Shown here: piece by piece, positions 9,831 through 44,244 of the stretch
Layout of the letters: the number at the start of each line of letters is the position of its first letter
How positions within the stretch are numbered: the first letter of the stretch is position 1
Notes under the pieces: generated by a model
The model's database searches: none
Seen by the model: the letters and a program-made list of their open reading frames with translations, nothing else
Told to the model about the DNA's origin: nothing
DNA from: Macrostomum lignano
Taxonomy: Eukaryota
Assembly: GCA_002269645.1 (NCBI GenBank)
Contig: NIVC01004402.1
Coordinates: 1 to 47,034, forward strand
DNA: 47,034 bases
Direction: 5' to 3'
Program-made: the position numbers and the translations under genes

Positions 9831-9989
9831 GACTGATGAGCGAGTGGGTGCTGATGCTGCCCTTGCTGCAGCTGCGGGCATCGGGAATGAACTGTGCTAT
9901 GTACGTTCAGGAATCTAGTGAGATCCTGCACTAGTATGAATATGCGTGAACCCTATTTTGTAGCTTGGTCTCAAGCATAAATTCAAGAG

Positions 9990-23800: not shown

Positions 23801-26800
23801 GAAAGCTGTCGCCGGGTTTGCTGCAGACGTATCGGCCGGACTCGCTGACATCAGGCCGACTGTCGAAGAATATTGACTGTCGGTTGAGGACGAGGTCCCG
23901 GGTTCGAGTCGGCCAGGCGGCAGCACGGAGAGCCGGTAAGCCAGGCGGTCTTCAATAATTCTCCGCAGGCCGGGGTCGCGCCAGCCGCACCTGTAGACGC
24001 CGCTGCCGTCGCTTTGTCGAACCGAGGCGAACAGCAGGGCGCCGTTGCTGGGGTCGATGCCCATTCGAGCGGCGCCTGCGGGAGCAGGTTGGCCAGGGTG
24101 ACTTCTACGTACGCGGAGGCAACACAGAGGGTCTACAGACTTTCTCCTCGACAGGAGTGTCAGGAATGAACCCCAGTTAACTCAAAATGCACGAGTCACA
24201 TTCTAATTACACCCTATTCAACTCAGGAGTCACACCCAATCCACCTCAGGAGTCACATCCAATCCACCTCAGGAGTCACAACCCATCCACCTCAGGAGTC
24301 ACACCCAATCCACCTCAGGAGTCACACCCCATCCACCTCAGGAGTCACACCCCATCCACCTCAGGAGTCACATCCAATCCACCTCAGGAGTCACAACCCA
24401 TCCACCTCAGGAGTCACACCCAATCCACCTCAGGAGTCACATTCCATCCACCTCAGGAGTCACACCCATCCACCTCAGGAGTCACATCCAATCCACCTCA
24501 GGAGTCACACCCATCCACCTCAGGAGTCACACCCAATCCACCTCAGGAGTCACATTCCATCCACCTCAGGAGTCACACCCCATCCACCTCAGGAGTCACA
24601 TCCAATCCACCTCAGGAGTCACACCCATCCACCTCAGGAGTCACACCCCAATCCACCTCAGGAGTCACACCCCATCCACCTCAGGAGTCACACCAATCCA
24701 CCTCAGGAGTCACACTCCATCCACCTCAGGAGTCACACCATCCACCTCAGGAGTCACACCCCATTCACCTCAGGAGTCACACCCCATCCACCTCAGGAGT
24801 CACACCCAATCCACCTCAGGAGTCACACCCCATTCACTCAGGAGTCACACCCATCCAATATCAGGAGTCACACCCCATCCACCTCAGGAGTCACACCCCA
24901 ATCCACCTTAGGAGTCACACCCATTCAACTTAGGAGTCACACCCCAATATCAGAAGTCACACCCCATCCACCTCAGAAGTCACACCCAATCCATCTTAGG
25001 AGTCACACCCCATTCGACTTAGGAGTCACACCCCCAATATCAGGAGTCACACCCCATCCACCTCAGGAGTCACACCCAATCCACCTTAGGAGTCACACCC
25101 CATTCAACTTAGGAGTCACACAGTAGCTTCACAATCGCAAGTTCGAATAATAAAACAAATAAGACAATGCAAGTCGAACCTTCGGTTGCCATGGGAACGG
25201 TGTGCAGCCGGCCAGTAGCGCTAATCAATTTGTGCCATGTAAACAGGCCGCCCATCAAACGCAGGTGAGAAGAACCACCTGAATCAGTGAGCGCGGCTGG
25301 AGCAGCTTTGCATGGCAACCGCAGGCTGTCGCCCGCTCTGCTGCTCACAGTAATTATCGGGGCAGATTGAGCAGCTTCCATGGTTGTTACTATGGCAACG
25401 TCTGAGACGGCAACGCCCAGGCTATTGACGGCGAGGCAGCGGTAGACTCCAGGCGAAATTGCCTCAAACGAGCTGTTCACTGAAAGTGAGTCAACATTAA
25501 TATATTCTTGGTTACTACAAAGGTCAGACTAAAAATTTCACAATAAAGATGCTCAAGATTTTCACCCTTAGCACTTCGAGCATTTACTCTTTAAAATCCA
25601 AAAGAAATAAGGGACTTATTTATTTATCCCCCAGCTTATTTTATTGCAAGATCTAATAAAATCAGATAAAAATTGACAAAAATCTGCTCACCATAGAAAG
25701 ATTTGTTCCGGCCAAGACTACTATTAGTAGCGATAACTTGACCGTCTCGATGCCACACTAAATTAGGCGGCGGATCGCCGAATGCGCCGCATTCCAGAGT
25801 CACGTGATCGGGCTTCAACAAGATCACGTGACGTTGAGAAGCCGGCCAATGGATAAAAGTAGGCGGCGTGCCCTCGTCTGATATCGGTCCTAAAAAGTGA
25901 ATTAGGCAGACGAAACTAATTTAAAAATAAATTCACCCCAGAATACACCACAGTCCCCGACCCCACAACACACACCCCACTCCCCGACCCCACAACACAC
26001 ACCCCACTCCCCGACCCCACAACACACCCACTCCCCGACCCCAGAAACACACACCCACTCCCCGACCCCAAAACACACCCCACGAACCCGACCCAACACA
26101 CACCCCACTAGAACACACGACTCCCCGACCCCAAAACACACACCCCACTCCCCGACCCCAAAACACACACCCCACTCCCCGACCCAAAACACACACCCCA
26201 CTCCCCGACCCCAAAACACACCCCACTCCCCGACCCCAAAACACCCCACACACCCACTCCCCGACCCCACACACCCCACACACACCCCACTCCCCGACCC
26301 CAAAACACATACCCCACTCCCCGACCCCAAAAGACCCCACTCCCCGACCCCAAAACACACACCCCGACTCCCCGACCCGATGCACACACCCACTCCCCAC
26401 CACGTGACGTTGAGGCCAATGGATAAAAGTAGGCGGCGTCCCCCATCCTAAACAAGTGACCCCCCCAGAATACACCACAACCCCCGACCAACACGACACA
26501 CACTCGACCCCAACTCCCCGACCCCAAAACACACACCCCACTCCCCCCCAGAAAACACACACCCCACTCCCCGACCCCAAAACACACCCCACTCCCCGAC
26601 CCCAAAACACACACCCCACTCCCGACCCCAAAACACACACCCCACTCCCCGACCCCAAAACACATACCCCACTCCCCGACCCCAAAAGACCCCACACCCC
26701 AAAACACCCAAAAACACACAGACCACACACACTCCCCGACCCAGAACACACACCCCACTCCCCGACCCGAAAACACACACCCCACTCCCCGACCCCAGAA

Positions 26801-27707: not shown

Positions 27708-28120
27708 AGTAGTAGGGCGAATTATGACACCGCCGCACCAGCACCGGCGAGACAGGCGGCAATGCAAATGCACAGGGAAAAATACACTGCGGAGATATGA
27801 GCCCTATCTCTGTGCATTGGGGACGGCTAAGCACTGCAGAGATATGAGCTCTATCTCTGTGCATTGGGGACGGCTAAGCACTGCAGAGATATGAGCTCTA
27901 TCTCTGTGCATTGGGGACGGCTAAGCACTGCAGAGATATGAGCTCTATCTCTGTGCATTGGGGACGGCTAAGCACTGCAGAGATATGAGCTCTATCTCTG
28001 TGCATTGGGGACGGCTAAGCACTGCAGAGATATGAGCTCTATCTCTGTGCATTGGGGACGGCTAAGCACTGCAGAGATATGAGCTCTATCTCTGTGCATT
28101 GGGGACGGCTAAGCACTGCG
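27708..28120 (+). repeat. Left TIR including seven 47-bp tandem units
   Basis: Reverse complement of 43999-44244. Units GAGATATGAGCTCTATCTCTGTGCATTGGGGACGGCTAAGCACTGCA at 27792-28120. A degenerate internal copy of the TIR tip lies at ~28137-28250. Confidence 0.95.
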
Positions 28121-28467
28121 GAGATAGAGGCGATTCATGATACTGCCGCACTAGCACTGGCGAGATAGGCGGCAAAAAGGATATAGGAAAAATACACTGC
28201 GGAGAGGATCCTATCTCTGTGCATTGGGAACGGCTAAACATTGCAGAGATAAGAGGGGTGGCCAATCTCTGTGCTCTGTGTTAGGGTAAGGTTATAAAGT
28301 TTTACAACTGCACAGAGGACGGCTGGTGTTGCTTACCTGGATAAGGGGACGGGGGGATACACTAATTACAGCCGGTGGCCTCTATAACGGTAAAGTAATT
28401 ATTACCTGAGCATGGCTGGATGTTCATATACGATATGATAAGGAGAGGGCATGCATGTACAAATTAC

Positions 28468-28475
28468 TATATAAG
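28468..28475 (+). promoter_or_regulatory. TATA box TATATAAG of ORF1
   Basis: About 103 nt before ATG 28578. The same octamer precedes the ORFs starting at 43638 and 36709. Confidence 0.6.
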
Positions 28476-28577
28476 CAGCCACGCAAGTACAAATAAACAA
28501 ATAGACAAAAACAAAATTGTATAAAAGGATTTTTAAAAACCTTACTACTTCTAAAAAACAACTCTTTCTCTTTCAAA

Positions 28578-29873
28578 ATGAAAACTTTTAAAAGTTGTCA
28601 TAGAGACCTCTATGAGGTCTGTATAAGCTGCGAAGTGTGCCTGCTTGGAGGCGTGTCCCCAAGACACCACGAGAATGAGAACTGTCTGGTCTCATGCTGG
28701 TTGGCATGCGACCAGTGCGGCACCGTCGAAGCTCTGCAGGAGGGAAAAATTCCAGCATATCATCGAGGACACAGGATCGTCAGCGATGACAAGAAAAAGC
28801 AAGAAAGTAACCGCTGGAAAGTAATCCGCGCCATCAAAAAGAGCAACGAGAGAGAAAAGAAGATCCAGCAGAAAAAGGGAGCCAGCAGGAGTCTGCTATC
28901 AGCTCACTTGAGTCAAGTAATTGACTCTACATTGAAGAGGATGAGGCCAAGCGGGTCTTCAGCAGCTGCAGAATTTGAAGTTGAGCTGTCTGCTGGAGTC
29001 GAGGCTGCTGGAGTCGAGGCTGCTGGAGTCGAGGCTGCTGGAGTCGAGGCTGCTGGAGTCGAGGCCGCTGGAGTCGAGGCTGCTGGAGTCGAGGCTGCTG
29101 GAGTCGAGGCTGCTGGAGTCGAGGCCGCTGGAGTCGAGGCTGCTGGAGTCGAGGCTGCTGGAGTCGAGGCTGCTGGAGTCGAGGCTGCTGCTGTCATAAA
29201 CTTCATAGAGGAAGATGTCCTGGATCAGTTCCTCAGGGAATTCAACGCTGGTCAGCAGCAGCAGCAACCTGTCTCTTCGGTTCCGGTGATTGCTGGAAAA
29301 CAACTTCATCTAATTGAAGACGACCACGAAATGGAAATCCTAGAAGAGGAGGGCAGCGACAATGAGTCGCATAATGCAATTGTGCCACCTGCAGCTCCAG
29401 CCGCCCCAGCTGCTCTGGCCGCCCCAGCTGCTCTGGCCGCCCCAGCTGCTCTGGCCGCCCCAGCTGCTCTGGCCGCCCCAGCTGCTCTGTCCGCCCCAGC
29501 TGCTCTGGCCGCCCCAGCTGCTCCAGCCGCCCCAGCTGCTCTGGCCGCCCCAGCTGCTCTGGCCGCCCCAGCTGCTCCAGCCGCCCCAGCTGCTCTGGCC
29601 GCCCCAGCTGCTCCAGCCGCCCCAGCTGCTCTGGCCGCCCCAGCTGCTCTGGCCGCCCCAGCTGCTCTGGCCGCCCCAGCTGCTCCAGCCGCCCCAGCTG
29701 CTCTGGCTGCCCCAGCTGCTCCAGCCGCCCCAGCTGCAGCCTCTACAATTCCAGCTTCTCAATCCGAAACTCCACCCGTGCCAGCTGGAGTTGCCTTCTT
29801 TCTGCCTCCTGTCGGCGGGGCTGGGTACGAGGTAACGATTTTCGAAAATCGTATTAGAATTGTGCCGCTGTGA
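28578..29873 (+). CDS. Polinton accessory ORF1 (431 aa): Cys/His-rich N-terminus, basic NLS-like stretch, EAAGV and AAPAAL repeat blocks, acidic/Gln segment
   Basis: Intact ATG-stop ORF with a TATA box. The 15-bp and 18-bp repeats both keep the frame. Confidence 0.75.
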   Translation: MKTFKSCHRDLYEVCISCEVCLLGGVSPRHHENENCLVSCWLACDQCGTVEALQEGKIPAYHRGHRIVSDDKKKQESNRWKVIRAIKKSNEREKKIQQKKGASRSLLSAHLSQVIDSTLKRMRPSGSSAAAEFEVELSAGVEAAGVEAAGVEAAGVEAAGVEAAGVEAAGVEAAGVEAAGVEAAGVEAAGVEAAGVEAAGVEAAAVINFIEEDVLDQFLREFNAGQQQQQPVSSVPVIAGKQLHLIEDDHEMEILEEEGSDNESHNAIVPPAAPAAPAALAAPAALAAPAALAAPAALAAPAALSAPAALAAPAAPAAPAALAAPAALAAPAAPAAPAALAAPAAPAAPAALAAPAALAAPAALAAPAAPAAPAALAAPAAPAAPAAASTIPASQSETPPVPAGVAFFLPPVGGAGYEVTIFENRIRIVPL

Positions 29874-30758
29874 CTAAGCAATTTTTGTACTTTTTTGCTT
29901 TCTGTGTGGAGTGAGAAATCTACCCATTTATTGCAATTATTGCTAAAACTTTATTTCAACTAGCTTTTTAAAGTTGAAAGTAGGTACATTAATTAATGAT
30001 TTGATCATCTCATAACTCTGTATTCGCTTCTAGGAATCTTGCTTATAAGTTTTCAGTTTTCATTTCCAAATTAGTTTTAAAAAAAGCTCGTAGCTCGTAG
30101 TGGCAACCAATATTTTTTTGGTATCCGAGGTAAAAAAAATTATTTGAAAAGTAGGTGAAACATTATACAGTTGAATTTAACAAATTAAAATCAACATAAC
30201 ATACTTTCAATAAATTGGTGATGGTTTCGTATGCTTGGTGCGATTGATTAGGTATAATTTTCTTTCTACTGCTTTGACGCGGTGTTTCCTCATTCTTTAA
30301 TTATTGAACTTTTCAGCTATATTTCTGCTTCTAAACTCTCGTCTGTATTTTTAATTCATTGTTCCATGCATTGTTTATTGACTATGATTGCACCATGTGA
30401 ATTCGATAATTTTTTAAAAAAATATATACATATAATGTCAGCATTTTTCCACTCGGTGATTGGTTTGTTAATTAACTATTGGCTTCATTTTGCATTTTTT
30501 ACCGATTGAGTCTGCGTAGGAGGCAAATAGAAACGAACTTTTACGAATAGGGATCAATAGAATATGCATGCAGAGAGCTAGCTTAAGGGAGAACCAAAAA
30601 AATATAACCAGCATCTACTAGCTTGTAAGTGTGGATATTGTACCAGTATTGCAGCAATAAAGACTTACGAAAAAGATTTCCAATATTCACTCCCAGTTGC
30701 TTATGACACTCAGTTGCAGCCAGTAAACACTGTCAGCTTTTAACTGCTTGCCTTTTCT

Positions 30759-33700
30759 ATGGTTGAGCACTCCTGGATGGAGCAGGAGAATGACCACTCA
30801 TGGATGGAGAATGACCACTCATGGATGGAGAATGACCACTCATGGATGGAGAATGACCACTCATGGATGGAGAATGGCCACTCGTGGATGGAGGATGACC
30901 ACTCGTGGATCGAGTATGACCACCCTTGGGTGGACCATGACGTCAGCAGCGAGTCAGCAGCCAGCAGCGAGTCGGCAGCCAGCAGCGAGTCGGCAGCCAG
31001 CAGCGAGTCGGCAGCCAGCAGCGAGTCAGCAGCCAGCAGCGAGTCAGCAGCCAGCAGCGAGTCAGCAGCCAGCAGCGAGTCAGCAGCCAGCAGCGAGTCA
31101 GCAGCCAGCAGCGAGTCAGCAGCCAACAGCGAGTCGGTGACTGATGCACACCAAGGTAAGTGCCTTTATTTATCCTTTTCAACTTACTTAAAAATTTTCT
31201 TATCAATGCGATGTATATTATGCAGTCTAAAATTTTAGTCCAAAGAATGGGAGAAGGGGAGATAAAAGACTTTATACCGGTAGGGTTGTACATGTATGCT
31301 TGGGTACAGACGTTTAGTTTAGTATCTTTGATATTTGAAACTATAGGCAGCAAAAAACAAAAATATTATCCTAAAACCACAAACCAGGTTCAACAGTCAG
31401 CTTCAGCAGAGTTGCCCAAGCCTATGATCAATCACTGGAAATACTGAGGCTCAGATCGAGTCACCCAGACACGCTTCCGTCAGAATTTTTTGTCCAAGCT
31501 GGAGACAAAATTATTGAGGCAGTTCAGCAAAGAATTTCAAGACATCATTACAAAGTTCAGCTAAAGGCGAATATTCGAATGGTCCGAATAAGAGATGGGG
31601 AGATGCTTGCCGAAGAGGACAGATGGATAAGCTGTAAAATGCAGGCCCTAGACCTAGGTGGTGAAGCAGGCCGTTTAAACAACTGGTTGATTGAGCAGGA
31701 GCAGGAGTTGGAGAGGATCTGTAGTATGATTAATACGAACGGCAGTGGCTGGACAATTAAACAAATTAATTTTCTAGACATCAACCTTGCCAGGTACAAT
31801 CCAATTCGATTTCGCCAGGGCAGAGCCGTTAGATTCAATCTTCCTGCCAGTTTGAAGAACAAAAAGGCTGTTATCAATCCACCGAGCACAGGCAAAGACT
31901 GTTTCCTGTACGCCTGTCTCGCTGCACTGCACAGCGCCGATCCGAAAGTTCAGAAATCGCCCAACAGAATATCCTCTTACGATGAATGGTTGCGTGAGCT
32001 GGACTTTGCAGAAATCTCCATGCCAGTGAGTGTCGCTGATATCGATCGCGTCGAGTCTAACAATCCAGGAATTTGCATTTCTGCGTTCTCTTGGCAGCAG
32101 GGCAGTGTGACTCTTCTCCGTCGCCGCAAGCATGAGTCAGATGACCGAAGACACCTCATGCTTTTGCTAGTTAAAGACAGCTACGGATCGGAGCACTGGT
32201 GTGCAATTACTAATTTTGACAGGTTAATGAACAGTCGTAATGGTCCCGCCATGAGGAAGTGGTGCACGAAATGTTTAACATCATTTTATAGCAACGAGAG
32301 GCTTCAAGAGCACAGGAACGAATGCAGCATTACTGCAGAAAATCCTGTCAAAGAAACGCTTCCAGTTCCAGGACAGAATGAAATAAAGTTCCGAAACTGT
32401 CAAAACACTGTCAGTCCACCATTCGTTGCCTATGCCGACCTGGAAGCCATTTTGCGAGCGAACACAGACCCTGCTAACCTGATCTCAAAGCATGAACCAT
32501 GTGCAGCAGCTTTTCTTGCAGTGCCTCGTGAAGGCATGACAGGACCTCCGCTTAGGCCAGAAGGAGACATGTACAAGGTCTTTTGCAATGCGGACCCTGA
32601 TGAGTGTATCCTTGGTTTTCTCAAATCTCTTGAAAGCCTGGCTCAGGATATATTTCACTGGAACCAGAAGCATAGCCACCAGCCGGCTGACCGATCATCC
32701 GCGACCGTCATGGATGATTTCAATTCTGCTGAGGTATGTCACTACTGCAAGAAGAACTTTAAAAGTTCTACAGATAAACATTTTGACCACGATCATTTAA
32801 ATGGACAGTACAAAGGTGCAGCATGTCAAGAATGCAACCTGCGAGCACAGCTCCGACGCCGGTTTCTGCCCCTGGTTTTTCACAACTTAGGCGGCTACGA
32901 CCTTCATCTTCTACTTTCCACTGCGCTTGGGAGCATGAAAAATTGGAAACTTAGTGTTGTTCCGCAATCATCCGAGCGATACTTGTCACTAAGGGCGGAA
33001 TTCCCTGTTGCAAGTTACGTAAAGAACGGAAAAGTTGTGCCAATCATGTTTACAATTCAGTTCATCGACTCGCTCTGCTTTTTGAAGGGAAGTTTGTCCA
33101 ATTTGTTTGCTAATCTTCCCGAAGCTGAATGCAAGCTGACAATGCAAATGCTTGAGTCAAGACCACATCTTTCAAGAGAGCTACTTCGAAAAAAAGGGAT
33201 TTTCCCATATGATTACCTCACAGGATTTGAGATTCTCGAGCAGTCGGTTTTGCCACCTAAAGATGCTTTTTTTAATCGACTTTCCGATAGGGGAATTTCC
33301 GACGACGACTACAATAGAGCAAGAGCGGCATGGGCGGCATTTCAATGCAAAAGTTTGAAGGATTATATGCTCGCCTATCTTGAAATGGATGTAAGGCAGC
33401 TGGCTGACATTTTCGAGACATTCCGACAGGCCAGTCTGAAAGAGGACGGATTGGATCCGGTACACTACTTTACTACTCCTGGTTTGTCTTACGACTCAGC
33501 TCTAAAGTCGACTGGAGTGGTTCTAGAGCAGCTGACTGATGCTGACATGTATCATCTGTTTGAGAAGGGAATACGAGGAGGCATGTCCTTCATTAATGTG
33601 CATTGCGTCAAAGGTAATAATCCTAGCTTGCCAGGTTATGATGATCAGCAAGAGAGTGTAAGCCTCATGCCGATCGATATGAACAACTTGTATGGCTTTG

Positions 33701-35037
33701 CCCTGTCGCTTCCGCTTCCATGCAGGGAATTCAGGTGGGTACCGGAACAGGAAATCCAGTTCTGGGACTCCAATCGGTTTCTGTCACTCAATCCAGAAGC
33801 CGAGATCGCCTACCTTGTTCAACTCGATCTAGAATACCCAGCTGAGATTCACGATTCGACTCAGGAGTTACCGTTTGCACCTGAAAAATCAAAACCACAG
33901 CCAGATCAATTCTCGCCGTACATGGCCGAACTATGGAAAGAGATTGCTGAACAGCGAACTGGCAATGCTGAAGCTAAGTTTCAAGCAACGGAGAAGCTTC
34001 TACTCACCTGTACCGACAAGGATTCTTACGTAGTTCACAGCACCGTTTTAAGATTTTACCTGCAACACGGAATGCGGATCAAGTGCGTCAAAAAAATGAT
34101 TTCGTTCAAGCAGGAAAATATTTTCGCGCCGTACATTGCCAGCAACAATGAAAAAAGAGCTTTGGCAACTTCCGAGTTTGCTAAGGATTTTTACAAATTG
34201 AAAAACAATTCTCTCTTTGGAAAAACTATGGAGAACGTTCGAAAAAGATGCGATGTTCGAATTTGCACTAACCAGACTCAAGCAGAAACTTGCGCCTCTC
34301 GACCAAACTGTGCCGCATTCTCGATTATCAATGAGTCGTTGAGCATTTTTCAGCTCAAAAAAGATAAAGTCACGCTTGACAAGGCCATTTTCGTTGGCCA
34401 GGCAGTTCTCGATCTCTCTAAGATGGCCATGTACAGCCTACTATATGACAGGCTCCGACCGCTGTTCTGTCATTCAGACGGTTCCAGAGACATGATGCTT
34501 TGCGGAGGTGATACTGACTCATTTTTTCTAGCTTTCAAGAATCATGATTTAACATCGGAGGTAATCCCGAAGCTTAGAGAGGAAAAAATACTTGACACAT
34601 CCAACTATTCTCGAGACCATCCGCATTTCTCTGAAGAGTTAAAAGGAAAGCTGGGCTGCGTTAAAGATGAATCTGCTGGTGGAATTTACCAGGAGTGGAT
34701 TCTTTTGCGTCCAAAACTTTATTCGTTTCTCCCTGCCGAGAATTCGAGTGCAAAGATCAAGAAAACTGCCAAAGGCGTGAAGCAGTCAGTAGTAAGACAG
34801 CAAATTTCGCATGCGAACTATGTCGACGCGTTCGAGTCCAAGCAAGAGCAGATGGTTGCCATGACAGCGATTGTTTCCAAGAAACACGAAATCTTCACGT
34901 CGGTCATGGAGAAAAGAAGCCTATCGGTGTGGGAGGATAAGCGAGTGTGGCTTAGCAGTAATCGAAGCCTGCCCTACGGACACTATGCGCTGACGCCCGC
35001 ATCCCACGATCAGCTGAAGCGCATCCGACTGGTCTAG
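30759..35037 (+). CDS. polB: Protein-primed family B DNA polymerase (pPolB); spliced model 30759-31155 + 31388-35037 = 1348 aa (unspliced ORF 31579-35037, 1152 aa)
   Basis: DCFLYACLAALH, C2-type Zn motif, ExoI YADLE, endonuclease-VII-like CHYC..HFDHDH..ACQECN, FHNLGGYD, FIDSL, KGIFPYD, IRGG, DMNNLYG, KLKNNSLFGK, GDTDS and KTAKGV. Intron 31156-31387 is GTAAGT...CTAAAAC...CCAG, phase 1 to phase 1. Confidence 0.95.
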
Positions 35038-35618
35038 TGCGGGTGTTTAACAGACTGTTTAGTACTTTTTCTTGCTTTTAGAGTTGTTTAAATTGCCAAA
35101 TTCTGTTTTAAATGTAGTGACTTGCATGTAGTAACTTTTACAAATTTGTATGCTTGGCTAATTGCGCTAGATTTAGCTGTCAATTTGTTTTTGCGGCGTG
35201 AAATATTGATATCAATTTAAGTTTTACTTTTTATAAAGCTGTGGCAAGTGCGCTCATACAATATTAATTCATTTTTGTTTGCTTTGTGTACTACTTGTTT
35301 AAAATGTGTTTTTGGTTTTTATCTGACATAAATTGTTCCTGTAAATTCAATCAGCGTTTTAATCATATTTTCTCTATCACTTTTCTATTTCTCTTCTCTC
35401 GGTGCACATCGTTTGTTATAACGATGGTAGTATTGTTTACTTTCGGATTTGATATGCGTTTTGCGATACTTTTGGTGATGGGCTAAATACGTTTTTGAAG
35501 TGTTCCATAGCTGTCTGCCTGGGAAAATGAATGTAAAGAATACTAAGTTTATCCTTTTATTCACTTTTCACTAATCATTGAAATATTTGCGGCAAATTGC
35601 TTGACTTGACTTTTATTT

Positions 35619-36190
35619 TTATTCAATGGAAAGAACTACATTGAGTAGACGCATGCTATCGGTATGCAACTGATTCAAGGACCGAGCTCCACTGAGAACA
35701 AAAGAGCCGCTGTGAAAAAGCAGACATTTACAAAAGTTTAAATTGAAAATTAAAGCAGAAAAGGATTCTGGTTCATATTCGGCGTTTGGGATAATTGATT
35801 TTAACATTAATAAGGAAAGTGCGGAATGAACTGGGAGCTGTCCATGAGCAGTAATAGTTTTAATTCGAACACAAATTGTTTGATGAGGCAGCAGTTGAGC
35901 CGGCACTCTCCGATGCAGCATAGCCACGAAGCGACGGGCAGCCCTTTTGGCGTCTGCGTGGGTCTTGGCACCGCAGATGCTCAGTTGCCCAGTAGGGTAG
36001 AGTAGCAGAGTCACTCTGGGAATCGCATCCGCTTGATGAGCACCCGGGGCCAGACGGGCCGGTAGATCACATGAGCCATGCTGAGAGCCAGTTCCCGTAG
36101 AGGCAGCTGAGCGCCCCTGCCACCATCCAGTCTCAGATCTACTCCGCCAACCAGATTGGTCACTCTTAGGGCTGTAGCTGGTGGGCTCAT
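35619..36190 (-). CDS. TATA-binding protein (TBP)-like protein, ~190 aa after restoring one base at 36018-36020
   Basis: Repeat 1: LRVTNLVGGVDL...LPLRELALSMAHVIYRPVWPRVLIKRMRF[P]RVTLLLYPTGQLSICGAKTHADAKRAARRF. Repeat 2: RIKTITAHGQL...NAEYEPESFSALIFNLNFCKCLLFHSGSFVLSGARS. Both match TBP core patterns (QNIV, YNPKRF, TALIFSSGKMVCTGAK, RLAARKY, YEPELFPGLI, LLIFVSGKVVLTGAK). Confidence 0.88.
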
Positions 36191-36224
36191 TTCGATCGTC
36201 AACTTCTTCACCAAATCTGCTTCT

Positions 36225-36709
36225 GCCAACTTTACTGCTCGTGTGCCACGGACACTGCTCGCTTCTTAAGTTGATGCAGAACTTTGGCTTAAGCCAACTG
36301 TAGTGCAGCAACGAATTTCTCACTGCACAGCCAGTATCTGAATCTTCAGTCGAGGGTGCTCCCAAATCTTCTAGGTTATAAACCTGTCTTCCAAGCAGCT
36401 CAGTCAGAAAAATCGACTTCCTTTCCCCATTTGACCAGATCGGACCACTGGCAATGCTCAGAATGTCTTCCGCCAGTTCCATGTACGGACGGGTTCCATC
36501 ATTCCACTTAAACTGGTGCAGACTCTTAGATAGCTGTCTGTAGTAAACTCGCATGTCAGGTGAGACTCTCTCCCATGGATACGGAGGTGCGTACACATGG
36601 TGAGCAATGCGGTAGCTCCCCGCTCTGATTTGAACAACTGCCAACTCCTTCACAACAAATTTTTTGCTTGTGCTGTTGCACGGAATCCTTGGAAGTCAAT
36701 GTAGTTCAT
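36225..36709 (-). CDS. Polinton accessory protein, probably RNase H-fold/DEDD-exonuclease-like (3' end uncertain; frameshift at 36660-36665)
   Basis: MNYIDFQGF...[K]KFVVKELAVV...APPYPW...LHQFKW.DG..PY...I...G..K..FL......LEDLGAP...CA.RN resembles the small conserved IDxQGF/FxxKELA protein recalled from invertebrate Mavericks. As assembled it runs through into the TBP C-half. Confidence 0.55.
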
Positions 36710-36750
36710 GATGCAGCTTTCCTTCGAAAATTTCGGAGTCAGTCCACCTT

Positions 36751-36758
36751 CTTATATA
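36751..36758 (-). promoter_or_regulatory. TATA box TATATAAG upstream of the exonuclease-like/TBP pair
   Basis: 42 nt before ATG 36709. Confidence 0.55.
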
Positions 36759-36809
36759 CTTTTCTGGCAGGCAGTTTCAGCCAGGCTGTGTTGCTCCCGT
36801 ACCCCTTGA

Positions 36810-37429
36810 CTAGACTCTCCTGTTCTTTCTCCAGTTCACCCCTCTGCTGGTTGCCATTTTCTTCTTAACTGATTTACCAATAGCGGAAAGCGGAACATTA
36901 AGCTTTTTCTGCTGCAGAAAATCGATGAACTCGTTCCACCCAACTGGTTCACGCTCACATGGCGAATCCCTCACTGCGTGCTGAATCAAGTCCAGTATGT
37001 TTGAGGAAGGGATTGACGTGCCTGCGATTTCCACCTCCCCGTTTTCACAAACTCGAATCAGCTCTGGATTGGTGGACAGGATCGTCCACAGACTGCGAGC
37101 CCTGGTTTTGAATTTCTGTGGCACCGACTTGCTGATCTTCTCTTCCCAGGTGTTATCTGGGGTGTCTCTGTTTTCATCAACTTGGCTTCAGTATTTCGTG
37201 ATCCTTCTTTTCCAGCGTGCTTGCGCTTGGCCAGCAAACTTTGCATTGCACTTTGGTACATGGCGGTTTTCACATCTTCTGGACAATCCTCGGCATACAA
37301 GATGTCATCGCATTTCTTCTGAGCCTGCTTCAAGTCAGCTTCAGTGGTAGTCTCATTTGGCTTCAAATTCTGCATCAACATCTCATACTCTGCTTTAGGA
37401 ATCAGAACCATTTCTGAAAATTTGTTCAT
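36810..37429 (-). CDS. Conserved Polinton hypothetical protein (~206 aa; two track ORFs joined by a 1-bp frameshift at ~37140-37185)
   Basis: C-half CENGEVEIAGTSIPSSNILDLIQHAVR...PVGWNEFIDFL...NVPLSAIG matches a recalled Maverick-conserved pattern (GEV.I.G..IPGSNI.DL...P.GW). Confidence 0.65.
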
Positions 37430-37732
37430 TTTGCTTCTTCTTCTTTACCAGCTTAAGCAGAATCGGGAGTATTTTGATGAAGCCAGCCTTCAACAAGTCT
37501 GTCTTTCTTCTTTTGTGAGTAATTTTTCGAATTATCTCTTTTGACTTTGCAAGAACAGCTTTTTCATCGAGCGAAAACGATAGATTGTTTTGTAAGAGAT
37601 TATGGCAGGCCTCGACAAGAAAATAACGCACTTCTTTTGGACAATTTTTTATCAACAGCCGCTTGAAGCGCACGGTATATTTAGGTGACGCAAGAACCGC
37701 AAAAAACTTGCATGTGAATCAAGCACTTCCAT
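37395..37732 (-). CDS. Small basic Polinton protein, putative virion core protein (~112 aa; frameshift at 37680-37682)
   Basis: MEVLDSHASFLRFLRHL[K]YTVRFKRLLIKNCPKE..LVEACHNLLQNNL.....K..L.K.K.IIRKI....LLKAGFIKILP resembles the Maverick E(C/A)ALN.L.GN...GGFL family. Confidence 0.6.
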
Positions 37733-38454
37733 AGCGATGAAAACAATAGCTGATAAAAACAAGCTTCACTTTCACTTTCAAATACAAGATGGGGTCGCTG
37801 GTTGGGCAAAATTCTGGCCCGCACTCGCAGCTCATCGGGAGTTGATGGGTGAAAATCCAGGAACAGGTAAGCTCCCCTGCCCTGCGCGGTCACGTGCTTG
37901 AACACTGACAGCAGAAAGCCGGGCTTCTCTGTAAAGCACTGCCTGCCCAGTGCTGCAATCTGCAGCTGGTCTCTGGGGTTTTTCAAGATAGCTAAATACA
38001 TTACATTCAAGCTCATTGTTCGCGACTCTTTTCCCTTGAAAAATATATTCTGAGTCAGCATCACCAAGAAGCACGGCAAGTGATGTGCGATTCCTGTGAA
38101 AAAATTTCGCATTGAAGCAGAGTTTGAAGTTTCCTCTATTAAGTCATCGAAAACAACCAGGTCATTGGGCCTAAGTGCTGCCTCGATGTTGGTGGGAAAT
38201 CCCTGGCGCAGCTGCACACCTAGGCTGCTCAGTTCTGCATGGCCTGCCTGTGAGATCCCATAGTACCACAGAACTCTGCCAGGCTTCACATCAAACATGA
38301 CGTCTCTGTACTGGATCAGGTGTTTGACAAAGGTTGTTTTTCCTGCATTGGTGGGCCCGCAGACAATCATGCAGCTTCCCTGCCTGAGGCGGATATCGTA
38401 GCAAACTTGCTTTTCTCCCATGTTTAATGCATAAATATTAGAAATCACGGACAT
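37681..38454 (-). CDS. A32/FtsK-like genome packaging ATPase
   Basis: Walker A GPTNAGKT, Walker B LVVFDDL, LTQNIF and RTMSLN..Y..ILKNPRD. Confidence 0.95.
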   Translation of the reverse strand: MSVISNIYALNMGEKQVCYDIRLRQGSCMIVCGPTNAGKTTFVKHLIQYRDVMFDVKPGRVLWYYGISQAGHAELSSLGVQLRQGFPTNIEAALRPNDLVVFDDLIEETSNSASMRNFFTGIAHHLPCFLVMLTQNIFFKGKESRTMSLNVMYLAILKNPRDQLQIAALGRQCFTEKPGFLLSVFKHVTAQGRGAYLFLDFHPSTPDELRVRARILPNQRPHLVFESESEACFYQLLFSSLWKCLIHMQVFCGSCVT

Positions 38455-38956
38455 CTTTTTCTTAAGTTGGCTTCAAACCTCTGTAAGATTCTATCATTCA
38501 AATGATTTTTTCATTAGCATGCAAATGCTTCAAAATCCCCTCAAATGACCGATTGAACAGAAACTTTTGATAAGCAAAATAGATGCAAAACACTCCGCAT
38601 TTATTAGAGTTAGCACATTGAACTCTGTTTATATTGCTTCGGAGCCAAAAGCCAGTTGTTTTAATCTCTCGAAACAAATTATAAACCAAAGATAAAATTT
38701 CAGGTTCCCAGCCGAGGGAGTTGAACAACTCAATGCGATTTCCTTGCCCAACATAGCACACCACCCAGTGACCAAATGAGCCATTGTGCTGAAGTAGGAC
38801 AAAAACAAACTTGTTTTCAAAGGAAATTGATGATCTAAATTTTCTTTTTACATTCAAGGGCAGAGAATTTTTATAGCGCAAATGTAAAGTAACTATGAGA
38901 AATTTTTGGTAAGGCAAAAATTTTCTGGCGAGATTAAGTAGTTGAATTGCATCCAT
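38445..38956 (-). CDS. Adenain-like cysteine (maturation) protease; C-terminus continues after a 1-bp loss at 38506-38511
   Basis: GHWV, ELFNSLG and RVQ...SNKCGVFCIYF. The corrected tail is NEKNHLNDRILQRFEANLRKRCP*. Confidence 0.9.
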
Positions 38957-38961
38957 GTCAA

Positions 38962-40244
38962 TTAAGATGAATAGTCCAGCAAAAGCTCTCGGTGCTTGGT
39001 GACCTCAATCAGCGAGTCATACAGGCACATAGCAATCAGGGACACCGCTTCATTCAGAGCCTGTTGGAAGCGAATCTCCAGCCGCAGGTTGCCCTCCTTC
39101 TGTCCGTACCACAGAGCCGCTCCCTCGGGTGTGAGATCGAATGCAAACACCGTGCTGTTGTTGGAGAAGAGCTGGTAGGGGATCCACGGACCGAGTTTGT
39201 GTGGCTTGCAGATTGACAGCTTTTCAGGTAGTGCAAGTATTCTCTTACAAAGGAATTGTTTTCAGGTGTGAAGGCGCCGTGGCACACGGTTTCCCCACCT
39301 TTCTTTAGAGCCAATCGGCTAAGGTTGAAGCTCTGGAACTGGAACGGGCTCGCGTGATGATGACCGTTGAATGCTCGGTGGCTCACGAAGGCCAGCATGA
39401 TAAACTTCGGCAATTTTCCATGAGTGAATCCTTCAATGTTTTTTGACTGAATACCCTGGGGTAGGATGAAGTTCTGCATTTCAGTTCGCTCGATGGGATA
39501 CAGTGCATTTTGGTTTGTCAGCCCCTGCTCATGGGCCAGGCTGATGTGGGGCATCACTTTGACTCGGCGAAGATGCAGAATGCTGTGAGAGATTTCCATT
39601 CGGTATGCCGCGTTGTTTGCATTCGGGGTTCTGATGGCAAAGGCCCCATCGCTGGGGACCAGTTTGATGTGCAGGTGCAGATTGCTTAGCAGAAACACTG
39701 GGCACTGGAAAACATCGCTGAAGAGCGGCCCCGCATACTCCATCCATTGGGATTCCCTGTGGCTCTCCGTGTGCTCTTCAGCTGCCGAGTTCGGCTCCAG
39801 GAAGCCAGCAGGGTAAAGTTTTAGTTGCTGGGCATCGGATGAGCTCATTAGTGCTTTGAAGTACGCATGGTAGGGATAGAGCTGGTCTCCACCAGACACC
39901 ACTCGCTGGTTAATGCTCACAATTACATCTGAGAAGGCTGTAGACAGAACAAAATTTTCTGGGTGCACGTCACTGTCTCTGCGCTCGGTGATGATGCCAT
40001 CTCCATCTCGAACATCCTCCCTCAGCAAACCCCCATCCAGTCTCACAAGGCGGCAGCGAATATAAAGAAAAGAATTCAGCAGATCTGTGTATTCATCGGC
40101 AGATTGGTGGCAGTCAAATTCAATGGGAGAGTTTGCAACAATGGAATTAACTGGGTGAATATCAACATAAGTAGCTTTTTCAATGCAGGTTTGTAGAACG
40201 GGCGTCTTAAATAAATCAAGTCTGGGATTGAATCCGTAAGCCAT
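38962..40244 (-). CDS. Major capsid protein (double jelly-roll, Polinton PY), ~427 aa; 1-bp frameshift at 39221-39224
   Basis: LDLF..P..QT.IEK, PIEF, YTDL.NS.L, F..V.V.IN, GKLPKFIMLAFV..AF.G, PFQF..FNL. The C-terminal VFAFDLTP..GNLRLEIRF..AL...V..I....YDS.IE lies in the -1 frame. Confidence 0.92.
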
Positions 40245-40246
40245 GT

Positions 40247-40624
40247 CTATGACAGAGAGTCGAGCACGCGTTTCACAGTTTTCTTGCTGACTTTTTGCTT
40301 TCGCTTTCCTCCGCCTGCTCTATTCTTCTTTGCTTTCGTCTTCCTATTCTTAAGCTTTTTCCCACTAGCCTTGCTCGACCTCTTACTGCGATTTCCACCA
40401 GTTGCCTTTCGGGTGCCCTTCTTTTTCTTCAATCGTTTCGGACTTGCTTCAGTATTTCTTTTGCGCCTGACGTTGCTAAGCGTCGAGGCTGATGATGATG
40501 ATATAGCCGCTGGCGGAGGCTGGTATGTCATGATCCCTGGGAAGCTCCCACAGCCATAGAGTGCAGGCTTTTCGTGTCCTGTCCTCACCCCCGAATATTG
40601 CTGGATTAGCTGCTGGTAGTTCAT
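40247..40624 (-). CDS. Lys/Arg-rich putative DNA-condensing core protein (~125 aa)
   Basis: ATG 40624 overlaps the penton stop (ATGA). LYGCGSFPG motif followed by a highly basic C-terminus. The stop abuts the MCP ATG. Confidence 0.65.
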   Translation of the reverse strand: MNYQQLIQQYSGVRTGHEKPALYGCGSFPGIMTYQPPPAAISSSSASTLSNVRRKRNTEASPKRLKKKKGTRKATGGNRSKRSSKASGKKLKNRKTKAKKNRAGGGKRKQKVSKKTVKRVLDSLS

Positions 40625-41430
40625 TGAATGCGTTTCTCCTGAATTTGAACTGTAAGCAGAACAGGGCTGTGAGTCTGTGCAATCAGTGGGCAACCATAGA
40701 TGTCACGGAGCTGAACTCGAATGCTGTGAAGAAGACTGATTCGTTGAATCGGGAAGAATATTGTTTTCTTAAATATTTTTGTTTGATAGTTGCCCCATTC
40801 AATGCCGGCTTTCATTCCAACTGTTCTCAACAAGGAGCTCCAGTTGCAATTAGTTGACTCAACGATACTGCAGTGCACATTGATTAAGCTGGTGCGCGGG
40901 CAGCCAATGCAATGCTCGGACACGCGGCTCCCTGGCTGGATTTTCACAGCCTGGTTTCCAAATCCCAGCCAATGCAGAATTTTACTAGATGGAAGAAACA
41001 GCTCTGCTCTCGCAGTGTTGTTGTGCACCACAGTTCGTGAGTTGTGGATTTCGAACTTCATACCGAATTCCCTGTTGCCACTACGCCCCATCAGGCCGGA
41101 CTCATCAGCCTCCATCTCAGACTCCCTGTCACTCATTGCATCAAAGAACAGCGAATCAGAGTTGGCCAGCAGCTCATTCAGGCGCTCCACCAGCTCCTCC
41201 ACTCTAGCAAAGCGTCCGGGTTGAAGAACCAGGGCCTCATGCTCTCTTCCATCTGAGACAGTGAAGCAGTAAGGCTCGTCAACATTGAACCATGCAGCAG
41301 GCAGATGGATTTCAGCCAGACCTGCCTCATAGTCCACATTTCGATCCAAGTAAATAGGTGAAGGCAGGTAAAAATTAAAGTCACTAGGAGTACCTTCAGC
41401 ATGCTCACTGTTAATCAAAATAGTTCGCAT
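40621..41430 (-). CDS. Minor capsid (penton, single jelly-roll; Polinton PX)
   Basis: GTPSDFNFYLPSPIYL...YEAGLAEIHLPAAWFN and INVHCSIVE...LLRTV...SIRVQLRDIYGCPL. First ATG is at 41430 (the track start at 41448 is TTG). Confidence 0.85.
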   Translation of the reverse strand: MRTILINSEHAEGTPSDFNFYLPSPIYLDRNVDYEAGLAEIHLPAAWFNVDEPYCFTVSDGREHEALVLQPGRFARVEELVERLNELLANSDSLFFDAMSDRESEMEADESGLMGRSGNREFGMKFEIHNSRTVVHNNTARAELFLPSSKILHWLGFGNQAVKIQPGSRVSEHCIGCPRTSLINVHCSIVESTNCNWSSLLRTVGMKAGIEWGNYQTKIFKKTIFFPIQRISLLHSIRVQLRDIYGCPLIAQTHSPVLLTVQIQEKRIQ

Positions 41431-41467
41431 TATAATGATAAACTTCAAGATGAGGGATGTGCCAAAG

Positions 41468-42538
41468 CTAAACCTTTCTTAAGTCTTTTTCATCCACCCA
41501 GCCAGTCGAGTCGTAGCCCGCTCATTTCACCAGATAGCGAATTTTTCCCTTCCGCTTCTCCGTTTTCAGGATCTTCTCAATCACATACAGCCGCTGTGAG
41601 TCCGGGACAGCCTGCAGCTCGTGCTCATGGAAGAGTCCTCGAATCTCTTGCCCCCGCATGTCTTTAATCTTGTACATGTAGGGATAATGTTTTGGGGCTC
41701 TGCTCACCACGGTGTACACTTCCTCACTCCAGCTCGCTTTGTATCCCTTTTTGAATAGCCGTGGAGCATTGGAAATTCTCACTGACTGGTTTTCAGCGAA
41801 TTTAGGCTTCCTTAATTTTTCTAGAGTCTCGACTGCTTTTCCGTCGTACAGGTTCATCCACACTTCAGATTCATTCTCTTTGCAGACACTAGTGGGTGCC
41901 ATTTTGATGCTTCTGTGGTAGGTATTGTTGTAGGATTTTACCAGCTTAGGCAGCACATCAAGCCAGTGCAGTGTGCTCTTGTAGGTGAAGTAGCGCCACA
42001 TTCTACTTTTCAGAGTCCGATTCCATCGCTCAATGACAGCCGCCTTCTGCTCGCTGTTAGTTGGGAAAGCCAGAATCCCTCTGTCAATGCAGTATTGACG
42101 GAAAGTGGAGTTGATAAATTCCTTCCCCTGATCTGTGCGAACTGTGCGCGGCTGTCGCTTTGAACTTCTCAGTATGCTCTCGAATGCTGACTTCACTTCT
42201 GCAGCAGATTTATTTTTCAGTGCCTTGGCCCAAGCACATTTTGAGAGCACGTCAATGCATGTGAGAATATATTTGTAGCCTTTATTATGCTTTGCAAATG
42301 GAATCATTTCCACTAAGTCAAGTTCCCACTGATCATCGATTGCGCGCACTATGATTGGGGCCCTTGGATATCGCCTCCTAGCTGGCTTGTGCAGAGTGTG
42401 CACTGGCTGCTCGCTGAGCCACTGCTCAATGCTCTTTGCAGATATTCGATCACCTCTTTGCCTCACTTCATGCAGCAACTTTGAGGCACAAGAAAAACTA
42501 GCCGGTTGCTCAGGTTTCAAATAAATTTTCTCCATCAT
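41468..42538 (-). CDS. int: Retroviral-type (c-INT/rve) DDE integrase with C-terminal chromodomain interrupted by TGA at 41522-41524
   Basis: QWELDLVEM, YILTCIDVLSK, VRTDQGKEF and IERWNRTLK. Tail YVIEKIL..EKRKGKIRYLVK*AGYDSTGWVDEKDLRKV*. Confidence 0.95.
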
Positions 42539-42864
42539 GGGTTTATCAAGATACGTGCCTATCCACCTGCTCTAGCTGTACAGTATTTTTTCTTAAGTAG
42601 AAATTTATATTCCAATTAAATGATAGAGAAACGAGTGGCAAATTAATTTATTACTGTCAGATTGAAACCTCTAACATCGTAACAGTCGGTGTATTTTCCG
42701 AAAGCAAACAATCCATAAAAACGAACACTAAAACACTCGCACACCAGCATTTCAGAAATAGCAGAGATAAAAAACAGCATAGTGCCGTCAGATATAGGCT
42801 GGATAATCATGTGCAAGCTAAAAGTAATTTAGTTAGTCCAATGCATTCAAAGCATTCTAGCTGT

Positions 42865-43638
42865 TCAGTTATCAAAGCGAACATTGGGCAGCCTCATCGC
42901 GTCCTGCCGACGAAGTTGAAATGGCAGCTTTCGCTTCCTGCTGCTGCTGCTCACCGTCGAAGCCGCTGCATGCGCCCTGAACTGATACCACACCGGATCT
43001 TCCTCAAGGTTGGTGTCCCGCTGCGGAAGCAGTCCAGCATCAGAATCAACCAAAGGTATCGGTGTGGATGTGATAGGCTCAGTCACAATGCGCGGCCTTG
43101 TGGGCGAGCTAACGTCCTCGTCATCAGCATGCTCTCCGCCCTCATCAGTCTCCATTATGGGCTTCGTGTCCTGGTCAGCCTCCAACTTGAGCTTCTTGTC
43201 CTCTTCCTCCTCTTCCTCATCAGACTCCAGCTCGTACTGCATTGAGTTCCTCAAGGGAGCCACCAGCTGACCGTCGATCCAGGAGGCGATTTTCCAGAGC
43301 TTCTGCCACAGCGGCGGAGTCAGTGGTACGGCGTTTCGTCTCAAAAACTCCTCGCAGCAATCTTCCGGCAGCCGTTTGAGCCAAATGATGCCGCCTTTGA
43401 CTTCCACAAACTTATCGAAGCCGAGTTTCACGACCTTGGGCTCGTTGTTGCGTGCAGAAATCACAAGTGAGCGTTTCACCTCCTTCAATTTCTTCCATTG
43501 GTGAACATTCAGGTTGAATCCTGGGACGCCTGGCTTCAGACTTGCCGTGCTGCCGTGTCGGTAAAACTTGCGAATAGCGATAAATTTTTGTCCTTCAAAC
43601 TCCTGGACTTGTGCCTTATAGCCTTCACAGATGTCCAT
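42865..43638 (-). CDS. PC4/Sub1-like ssDNA-binding/coactivator protein with two tandem PC4-like repeats and an acidic tail (257 aa)
   Basis: KAQVQEFEGQKFIAIRKFY....SLKPGVPGFNLNVHQWKKLKE matches PC4 YVSVRDFKGKVLIDIREYW...[20 protein letters not shown]. A weaker second repeat is LGFDKFVEV..IIWLKR...AVPLTPPLWQKL...ID. Confidence 0.8.
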   Translation of the reverse strand: MDICEGYKAQVQEFEGQKFIAIRKFYRHGSTASLKPGVPGFNLNVHQWKKLKEVKRSLVISARNNEPKVVKLGFDKFVEVKGGIIWLKRLPEDCCEEFLRRNAVPLTPPLWQKLWKIASWIDGQLVAPLRNSMQYELESDEEEEEEDKKLKLEADQDTKPIMETDEGGEHADDEDVSSPTRPRIVTEPITSTPIPLVDSDAGLLPQRDTNLEEDPVWYQFRAHAAASTVSSSSRKRKLPFQLRRQDAMRLPNVRFDN

Positions 43639-43742
43639 TTTCCTTTCGCAATTGAAAACTCACAAAAGTTAAAAGCTGAGGAAAAGTTCGGATGAAATTT
43701 TGGATTTGAAAAATTGAGAATTCTTTCTTGTCAGTTTCGGGG

Positions 43743-43750
43743 CTTATATA
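43743..43750 (-). promoter_or_regulatory. TATA box TATATAAG of the PC4-like gene
   Basis: 105 nt before ATG 43638, mirroring the left-end ORF1 promoter. Confidence 0.6.
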
Positions 43751-43998
43751 CCCTCGACCGAACCACCCCAAACCACCCATCCCACTCCGGGCTCTGTGAT
43801 TGGCTCTTTCGCAAACATTATTTCCAATTACATAGATTAACATTCATTCAGCTAAGCTAACCCACTCCATCCTATCTCTGCAGTGTTAACCACCCCCAAT
43901 GCAAAGAGATAGGCCGCCTCTCCTCCTATCTCTGCAGTGTTAACCATCTCCAGTGTAAAGAGATAGGCCGCCTCTCCTCCTATCACTCCAGTGTTAAG

Positions 43999-44244
43999 CA
44001 GAGATAGAGCTCATATCTCTGCAGTGCTTAGCCGTCCCCAATGCACAGAGATAGAGCTCATATCTCTGCAGTGCTTAGCCGTCCCCAATGCACAGAGATA
44101 GAGCTCATATCTCTGCAGTGCTTGGCCGTCCCCAATGCACAGAGATAGGGCTCATATCTCCGCAGTGTATTTTTCCCTGTACATTTGCATTGCCGCCTAT
44201 CTCGCCAGTGCTAGTGCGGCAGTATCATAATTCGCCCTACTACT
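43999..44244 (-). repeat. Right TIR including ~3.5 copies of the 47-bp unit
   Basis: Reverse complement of the left terminus. Seven C/T differences were seen in the first ~140 bp. Confidence 0.95.

Follow-up and report, generated by a model that had tools for sequence, protein, structure and literature searches.

A Polinton of Macrostomum lignano Encodes a TATA-Binding Protein Homologue That May Read a Promoter Box of Its Own

Introduction

The control of capsid and packaging genes in animal Polintons is an open question, and the locus described here raises it in a specific form. In a 47,034-nucleotide stretch of Macrostomum lignano DNA (hereafter, the window), a preliminary description recognized a Polinton that carries a gene for a TATA-binding protein (TBP) homologue. 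What would such an element do with a TBP: which DNA would the protein read, and to whose polymerase would it bring that DNA?

The preliminary description knew of no report of TBP in Polintons, a statement that proves too strong, since the legend to Figure 5 of Starrett et al. (PMC8502044) applies a TBP label to MELD viruses with adintovirus-like PolB. Those viruses resemble the present case in that a midsize linear dsDNA virus, or an element related to one, combines this polymerase type with a TBP-like gene; they differ in that the gene appears as a label, in a section on non-animal datasets, and the available text carries no promoter, residue, or selection analysis. Term searches found no other precedent: TATA and TBP terms are absent from the available text of the Polinton surveys PMC11161782, bioRxiv 2023.08.22.554363, bioRxiv 2026.06.19.733378, and PMC8097293 (main text), and in that of PMC10675990 TBP is mentioned solely in mirusvirus-like elements. 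In the literature joining Polintons or Mavericks with TBP, Starrett et al. alone was relevant, and subscription papers, Repbase, figures, and supplements could hold a prior report; a search linking Macrostomum and Polintons returned nothing relevant. A published hint exists for TBP genes in such elements, and a rebuilt DNA face paired with its own box is absent from the searchable literature.

Results

The element and its genes

Positions 27,708-44,244 of the window are a Polinton of approximately 16.5 kb (Table 1). The Polinton context given in the preliminary description was borne out: the pPolB, the rve integrase, the protease, and the terminal inverted repeats that are hallmarks of Polinton/Maverick elements are all present, together with a PC4 gene, and the ATPase is recognized through weak matches. 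Inverted repeats of 246 nt, 97% complementary, bound the element; the flanks of the window copy differ and carry no target-site duplication, which may reflect assembly. A Pfam search for jelly-roll capsid genes gave no match, and the names capsid, core, and minor capsid are assigned from size and position. There is no RNA polymerase gene among the ORFs of the element.

Table 1. Genes, terminal repeats, and candidate promoter boxes of the element, in window positions
Feature	Position	Strand	Basis or remark
Left terminal inverted repeat, tandem subrepeats inside	27708..28255	+	Bounds the element
Canonical TATATAAG preceding 431-aa left-arm ORF	28468..28475	+	
DNA polymerase B, protein-primed type	31579..35037	+	PF03175
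TBP-like gene (open sister copies: 190 aa)	35619..36190	-	Frameshift near 36,020-36,030 in window copy
ORF upstream of TBP, 283 aa in sister copies	35860..36709 (end approximate)	-	Covers TBP codons 1-111 in a different frame
CTTAAGAA, 80 nt before TBP start	36263..36270	-	In 26/26 distinct family-A coding sequences
Composite TATATAAGAA, 47 nt before upstream ORF	36749..36758	-	Canonical TATA overlapping variant box
A32-like packaging ATPase	37681..38454	-	Weak Pfam matches, Walker A motif
CTTAAGAA before packaging ATPase	38459..38466	-	12 nt to first ATG
Adenovirus-type protease	38498..38956	-	PF00770; without upstream box
Putative major capsid protein	39054..40244	-	Size and position; no Pfam match
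Basic core-like ORF	40247..40624	-	Putative
CTTAAGAA, 110 nt before putative major capsid gene	40347..40354	-	
Putative minor capsid protein	40621..41430	-	No Pfam match
TTTAAGAA, 149 nt before basic core-like gene	40766..40773	-	0.3 probable from amino acids alone in A2
CTTAAGAA, 53 nt before putative minor capsid gene	41476..41483	-	
Retroviral-type integrase	41522..42538	-	PF00665
CTTAAGAA, 59 nt before integrase	42590..42597	-	
PC4/p15 coactivator-like protein	42865..43638	-	PF02229
Canonical TATATAAG before PC4	43743..43750	-	Candidate early promoter
Right terminal inverted repeat	43999..44244	-	Bounds the element

Several other features of the element deserve mention. The PC4/p15 coactivator-like gene is a second general-transcription factor gene in the element, with a canonical TATA ahead of it in all three families. 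Residues 384-422 of PolB match an Endonuclease VII-like Pfam family. Upstream of PolB, a repeat-rich ORF (30,759-31,579, plus strand) finishes at a probable splice donor near 31,147, which suggests that spliced exons could encode the N terminus of PolB. For the ORF at 35,860-36,709 on the minus strand (L004:1191-2042), the best Atlas clusters are unnamed and mostly arthropod (0.94-0.96), and a Maelstrom/DEDD-like assignment (Atlas score 0.88) is a lead only; a nuclease fold in this 283-aa overlapping ORF, if real, could bear on small-RNA silencing. Comparison of the window with L071-L074 and L077-L080 reveals a fixed cassette with shuffled arms, PolB and PC4 exchanging sides between the two TBP-bearing families (A and B, below), and in C38 TBP is directly followed by the left-arm ORF. 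To the left of the element, the minus-strand stretches 7,225-9,881 and 15,912-24,064 hold a host gene resembling an ankyrin/DHHC-type palmitoyltransferase and a second of the Ig/fibronectin cell-adhesion type with tandem-repeat introns (both named by eye).

The TBP gene and its predicted fold

The window copy distributes its TBP core between two frames of the minus strand, one with the N-terminal and the other with the C-terminal part, from a start at 36,190 to a stop at 35,619 with a break near 36,020-36,030. The preliminary description had joined these frames into a two-repeat TBP core, and we find the same. The 311-aa ORF at 35,619-36,554 matches Pfam PF00352 in two stretches (E = 1.6e-18), as does the 190-aa protein of an open sister copy, more strongly (E = 7.9e-25; 87 bits against a cut-off of 22.9); of 20 near-identical loci fetched, 18 have a single open 190-codon frame, the broken copies being the window and L002. 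The break in the window is probably an assembly artefact, because contigs from all four sequencing runs carry an indel relative to the window at that point, further indels (12 of 15 viewed, mostly single-base) are scattered across the element, and the target-site duplication is absent. The alternative is a real decayed allele, and the artefact is probable rather than proven.

AlphaFold2, given an alignment of 53 rows that included cellular TBPs, modeled the open sister copy with a pLDDT of 96.3 and a pTM of 0.87. TBPs were the best matches in a structure search with the model (Z = 20.5, rmsd 1.8, 173 residues aligned; best non-TBP match, Z = 8.2), at identities of 23-28%, and their N-terminal extension is absent from the element protein. 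The predicted fold is the two-repeat TBP saddle; the preliminary description had named both Pfam and AlphaFold as checks. NCBI holds a 99%-identical Macrostomum lignano protein, labeled hypothetical protein.

Copies, selection, and descent

The gene recurs in sister copies and in a second Polinton family. Among the 150 matches listed in a protein search of the genome, we counted approximately 93 stop-free, near full-length matches of 74-100% identity (family A); a second family (family B) gave approximately 17 such matches by our count. Host TBP and TRF2 are each found in triplicate, so these counts include duplicated haplotypes. The TBPs of families A and B are 36% identical. Family B TBP resides in a distant Polinton at the same gene position, overlapping the end of the nuclease-like ORF, and a TBP match lies within 5 kb at 22 of 25 family-B capsid loci (by eye). 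No TBP match is listed beside 20 loci whose capsid families are more distant (34-36% identical to family B); the search scored 150 of its 183 candidates and did recover host TBP, TRF2, and the two element families. These further Polinton families, with 34-36% capsid identity, a different gene order, and apparently no TBP, include G000:C2158, C4948, C137, C297, C84:1,077,352, and others. One incomplete stretch of 9.4 kb from such a locus yielded no TBP profile match.

As judged from substitution ratios, the element TBP is under purifying selection, in agreement with the preliminary description. The median dN/dS is 0.24 (range 0.16-0.57; Nei-Gojobori, 36 pairs of nine family-A subfamily representatives), with values of 0.17 in the overlapped first 111 codons (35 usable pairs) and 0.19 in the free, nonoverlapping part (26 usable pairs, 10 of 36 being saturated); bootstrap intervals for three pairs never rise above 0.61. 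Between L003 and each of L041, L037, L051, and L053, dS is 0.07-0.12 in the first 111 codons and saturated or nearly so in the C-terminal repeat, a pattern that points to a mosaic gene in which within-gene recombination may have swapped the stirrup-bearing repeat, the overlap also lowering dS in the first part.

In a careful tree of 27 rows, a branch supported at 100/99 sets the six element-type proteins apart from host TBP and from TRF2. An AU test rejects their grouping with host TBP, marginally and in the presence of long branches (p = 0.038); it covered the host TBP grouping alone, and the trees contain no herpesvirus or NCLDV TBPs. A larger set of 85 rows, every second non-element match with a full core, was given a quick tree only. 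Long branches meet in the 27-row tree, so it does not point to a donor of the element TBP.

Viral contigs scanned with TBP, capsid, and integrase queries yielded no relatives with context. A metagenome scan gave 32 loci at 23-33% identity, none of the 16 inspected having another gene of the Polinton set, and most looking archaeal or cellular. Close relatives (P0002-4, P0009, P0014, P0159-61) lie on contigs of approximately 3 kb or shorter. An F207-H208 signature is common to P0012, P0020, P0031, P0074, P0119, P0125, and P0132, short unnamed TBP-fold proteins that could possibly be the TBPs of other mobile elements. Divergent TBP genes, single or in tandem, also occur at L081:7432-8577, L083:8401-8802, L110:3279-3827, and L112:4093-5339, where they adjoin large helicase- or restriction-like ORFs on prokaryotic-looking contigs.

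A rebuilt DNA face and a conserved stirrup

Residues are numbered by host TBP (L021), which agrees with the yeast residues of Table 1 in PMC2265533. All 15 element-type sequences keep the host-like residues N69, V71, T112, L114, E186, P187, E188, F190, and F207, so that by sequence the TFIIB stirrup, E186-P187-E188-F190, is invariant; all 15 likewise share the changes T73G, F116Y, T124C, Q158K, and N159T. P191 is lost from every one of them, replaced by S, T, or N, and T215 is S, C, or A. The wedge phenylalanines depart from the canonical set of four, F190 and F207 being kept, F116 becoming Y, and F99 becoming P; likewise, of the central N69/N159 and T124/T215 pairs only N69 is kept. An invariant lysine falls at 203 when placed by the strand register of the model and at 201 when placed by MAFFT, S stands at 189 in many family-A members, and K120, R196, and K211 are lost or mostly lost.

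The preliminary description had anticipated most of these states correctly (E186, E188, F190, F207, and N69 kept; F116 to Y; N159 to T) and erred on two points. Its change of F99 to W reflects a one-residue misalignment, ungapped HMMER and MAFFT alignments giving W98 and P99 in family A, with P99 retained in 11 of 12 rows of an element-only alignment; and the alteration of the DNA face is not limited to one side, fixed changes occurring in both repeats. A suggested A100P/P191 swap was dropped, the ungapped alignment giving P at 99 and R at 100.

Invariant positions are concentrated on the DNA face: 11 of its 32 positions, by a list of our own choosing, are invariant, compared with 17 of the remaining 141 (p = 0.006), and five of those 11 are fixed on non-host residues. 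By these comparisons the DNA face is under selection for a new state. In TBP the basic patch of helix 2 contacts Brf1 and TFIIA; family A keeps this patch (K133 partly, R137, R138, and R145), within the doubly coded overlap, and family B has lost it.

According to the available text of PMC1636458, the 5′ half of the box in TBP-DNA complexes is read by the C-terminal repeat; P191 is proposed to bar all bases except T from position 1, and position 2 lies opposite residues 194, 203, and 205. In the element proteins P191 is lost and 203 is probably changed, and the commonest element box, described below, starts with C-T rather than T-A; the N-terminal repeat, reader of the 3′ half, is altered at the place where G is fixed at position 6 of the box.

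The YWTAAGAA box

In both TBP-bearing families a sense-strand YWTAAGAA, mostly CTTAAGAA, lies 12-155 nt upstream of the integrase, putative capsid, ATPase, and neighboring genes. Sense and antisense counts are 7/0 in the window copy of the element, 7/1 in A2 (L077), and 5/0 in each of two family-B copies. None of 300 shuffles per element reached the observed count (shuffle means 0.45-0.77), and among 8-mers CTTAAGAA ranks highest. The cassette alone carries the signal: the count over the whole window is unremarkable (9 versus 6.7), and no box occurs inside PolB on either strand. Within A2 coding frames, five boxes compare with 0.85 expected under synonymous codon resampling (0 of 3,000), although the amino acids by themselves make two of these 0.3 probable. 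Boxes lie no more than 150 nt from a start in 7/7, 7/7, and 4/5 cases, against a background of 0.20, the fifth of the last set resting on an uncertain start. The distance to the start is at least 42 nt for 16 of 19 boxes measured in A1, A2, and B; two boxes stand just 12 nt from the first ATG, and for one of these, before the ATPase, the Met matching the A2 sister protein's start in the alignment lies approximately 45 nt away. These statistics rest on four elements and one control. Because the pattern was defined after the upstream regions had been viewed, and because A1 and A2 are related and their counts not independent, family B and the positional test carry most of the weight.

The box is not universal. 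In family A it is missing ahead of the protease and of a 230-aa ORF, and it precedes TBP in none of three family-B sequences, a canonical TATAAAAG standing there in the two B copies inspected. Canonical TATATAA boxes lie ahead of PC4 and the left-arm ORF. The approximately 5.4-kb cassette of the apparently TBP-less stretch has no sense box, and TATAAG precedes two of its genes. A TATAAAC box is not enriched before genes of these elements, nor is there enrichment of plain TAAG, the baculovirus-type motif, and we found no literature precedent for an adenovirus TTAAGA promoter.

The stretch is present in 20 of 24 sequencing runs, whose status as RNA is a guess. In four runs every bin over 31,400-43,800 is covered at similar depth, the gap between PolB and TBP included, as carried-over DNA of a multicopy element might also produce.

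Discussion

We consider it somewhat better than an even prospect that the element TBP is a re-specified factor that reads YWTAAGAA as a late-gene switch and recruits host TFIIB and RNA polymerase II. First, host TBP would read the canonical TATA boxes standing ahead of PC4 and the left-arm ORF and, either itself or through read-through, serve the TBP region. In a second step the element TBP would bind YWTAAGAA before the integrase, capsid, core, ATPase, and neighboring genes and present its intact stirrup to host TFIIB, through which host RNA polymerase II would be recruited; in family A, where the TBP gene itself stands behind a box, positive feedback would result. DNA binding, TFIIB binding, and the early/late order are what we infer in this model. 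The stronger proposal, a natural orthogonal TBP-TATA pair with a DNA face rebuilt for CTTAAGAA, host TFIIB docking kept, and a two-stage cascade with feedback, seems to us evenly balanced between true and false.

The model is favored by the fold, the selection, the fixed new residues of the DNA face, and the placement of the boxes; by the retention of the gene in the same place by two families 36% identical; by the loss of P191 in all 15 sequences, given that the commonest box starts with C; and by distant capsid families without a TBP match, one partial copy of which lacks a sense box. The preliminary description had likewise proposed a captured, re-specified TBP. Re-specification has gained a candidate target in YWTAAGAA and the fixed DNA-face changes, whereas recent capture from the host is disfavored by the AU test.

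Several observations count against the model. F116Y, the lysine at 203 (or 201), and S189 correspond to the yeast DNA-binding nulls F116Y, V203K, and L189S (PMC2265533, Table 1); K120, R196, K211, and the F99 wedge are lost or mostly lost; and the protease and 230-aa ORF lack the box while family B TBP lies behind TATAAAAG. These substitutions and the loss of basic DNA contacts beside an invariant stirrup would also suit a protein that binds DNA poorly, its stirrup sequestering or delivering TFIIB or titrating inhibitors of TBP, while to host TBP the box would serve as a weak variant of TATA. Because the cavities of wild-type TBP admit G at position 6 (PMC1636458), host TBP might indeed read copies of the TATAAGAA type. 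We judge this decoy or helper role unlikely: rather than drifting, the concave face has settled on new residues that families 36% identical hold in common, the single apparently TBP-less copy examined lacks the box and has TATAAG before two genes, and G at position 6 is absent from the wild-type selections cited in the available text of PMC1636458.

Less probable still, the box may have another reader, such as a host protein or, from the element, PC4 or the nuclease-like ORF that overlaps TBP, or may be an RNA-processing signal, for instance a trans-splice acceptor, with TBP performing a separate job. The cassette is tightly packed and runs in one direction, other ORFs in it are uncharacterized, the box contains AG, and two boxes are only 12 nt from the first ATG; but a pyrimidine tract is missing ahead of most boxes, the predominant spacing of at least 42 nt is what a -30 element predicts, and, weakly, no joints are listed in the run contigs. 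Service to another polymerase or to replication, as in Pol III initiation or binding of the terminal repeats, strikes us as very improbable: the helix-2 patch of family A, with its Brf1/TFIIA contact, would fit, but family B has lost the patch, in family A it is doubly coded, and the box stands before protein-coding genes. Least credible is a nonfunctional relic kept through its overlapping frame alone, a reading encouraged by the 111 overlapped codons and the broken window copy and largely refuted by the dN/dS of the nonoverlapping part and approximately 110 stop-free matches in two families.

If the re-specified TBP is real, how does it compare with known systems? With cellular TBP and TRF proteins (PF00352) it shares the two-repeat saddle (Z of approximately 20 to archaeal, yeast, plant, and human TBP) and the residues N69, V71, L114, E186, E188, F190, and F207, and it differs in its 23-28% identity, the missing N-terminal extension, a clade of its own, and the fixed changes of the DNA face. 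The TBP fold is also common to the TBP-like factors of large viruses, namely those of NCLDVs, mirusviruses, and the herpesvirus ORF24/BcRF1 class, the last of which acts at late promoters. A search of BFVD structures returned 45 viral matches at E ≤ 0.001, including a Heterosigma virus TBP, an asfa-like B263R homologue, and EEHV4 U58; these are 7-20% identical and mostly larger, whereas the present protein has a cellular-type TFIIB stirrup and belongs to a 16.5-kb element with no RNA polymerase ORF. For mirusvirus TBP, see PMC10132985. The engineered yeast pair TBPm3/TGTA (PMC1636458) similarly matches changes in the C-terminal repeat to a changed 5′ half of the box; the element pair, known here from its sequence, would be natural, with far more changes and in both repeats. 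Promoter motifs of virophages and PLVs offer a further parallel: in PgVV (bioRxiv 2022.07.28.501842) the genes of a Polinton-like element share an upstream motif, one taken over from a helper giant virus, whereas in the present case it is the element that encodes the candidate reader.

If the proposal is correct, silent virion genes would depend on one small gene, an answer to the question of their control that can be tested, and the viral-TBP strategy of large DNA viruses would extend to a very small nuclear element. The natural variants of the protein and its box would constitute a set for decoding TBP specificity and possibly an orthogonal core-promoter pair for the control of transgenes. 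In a larger context, the evidence suggests that this element runs a private on-switch on the transcription machinery of its host.
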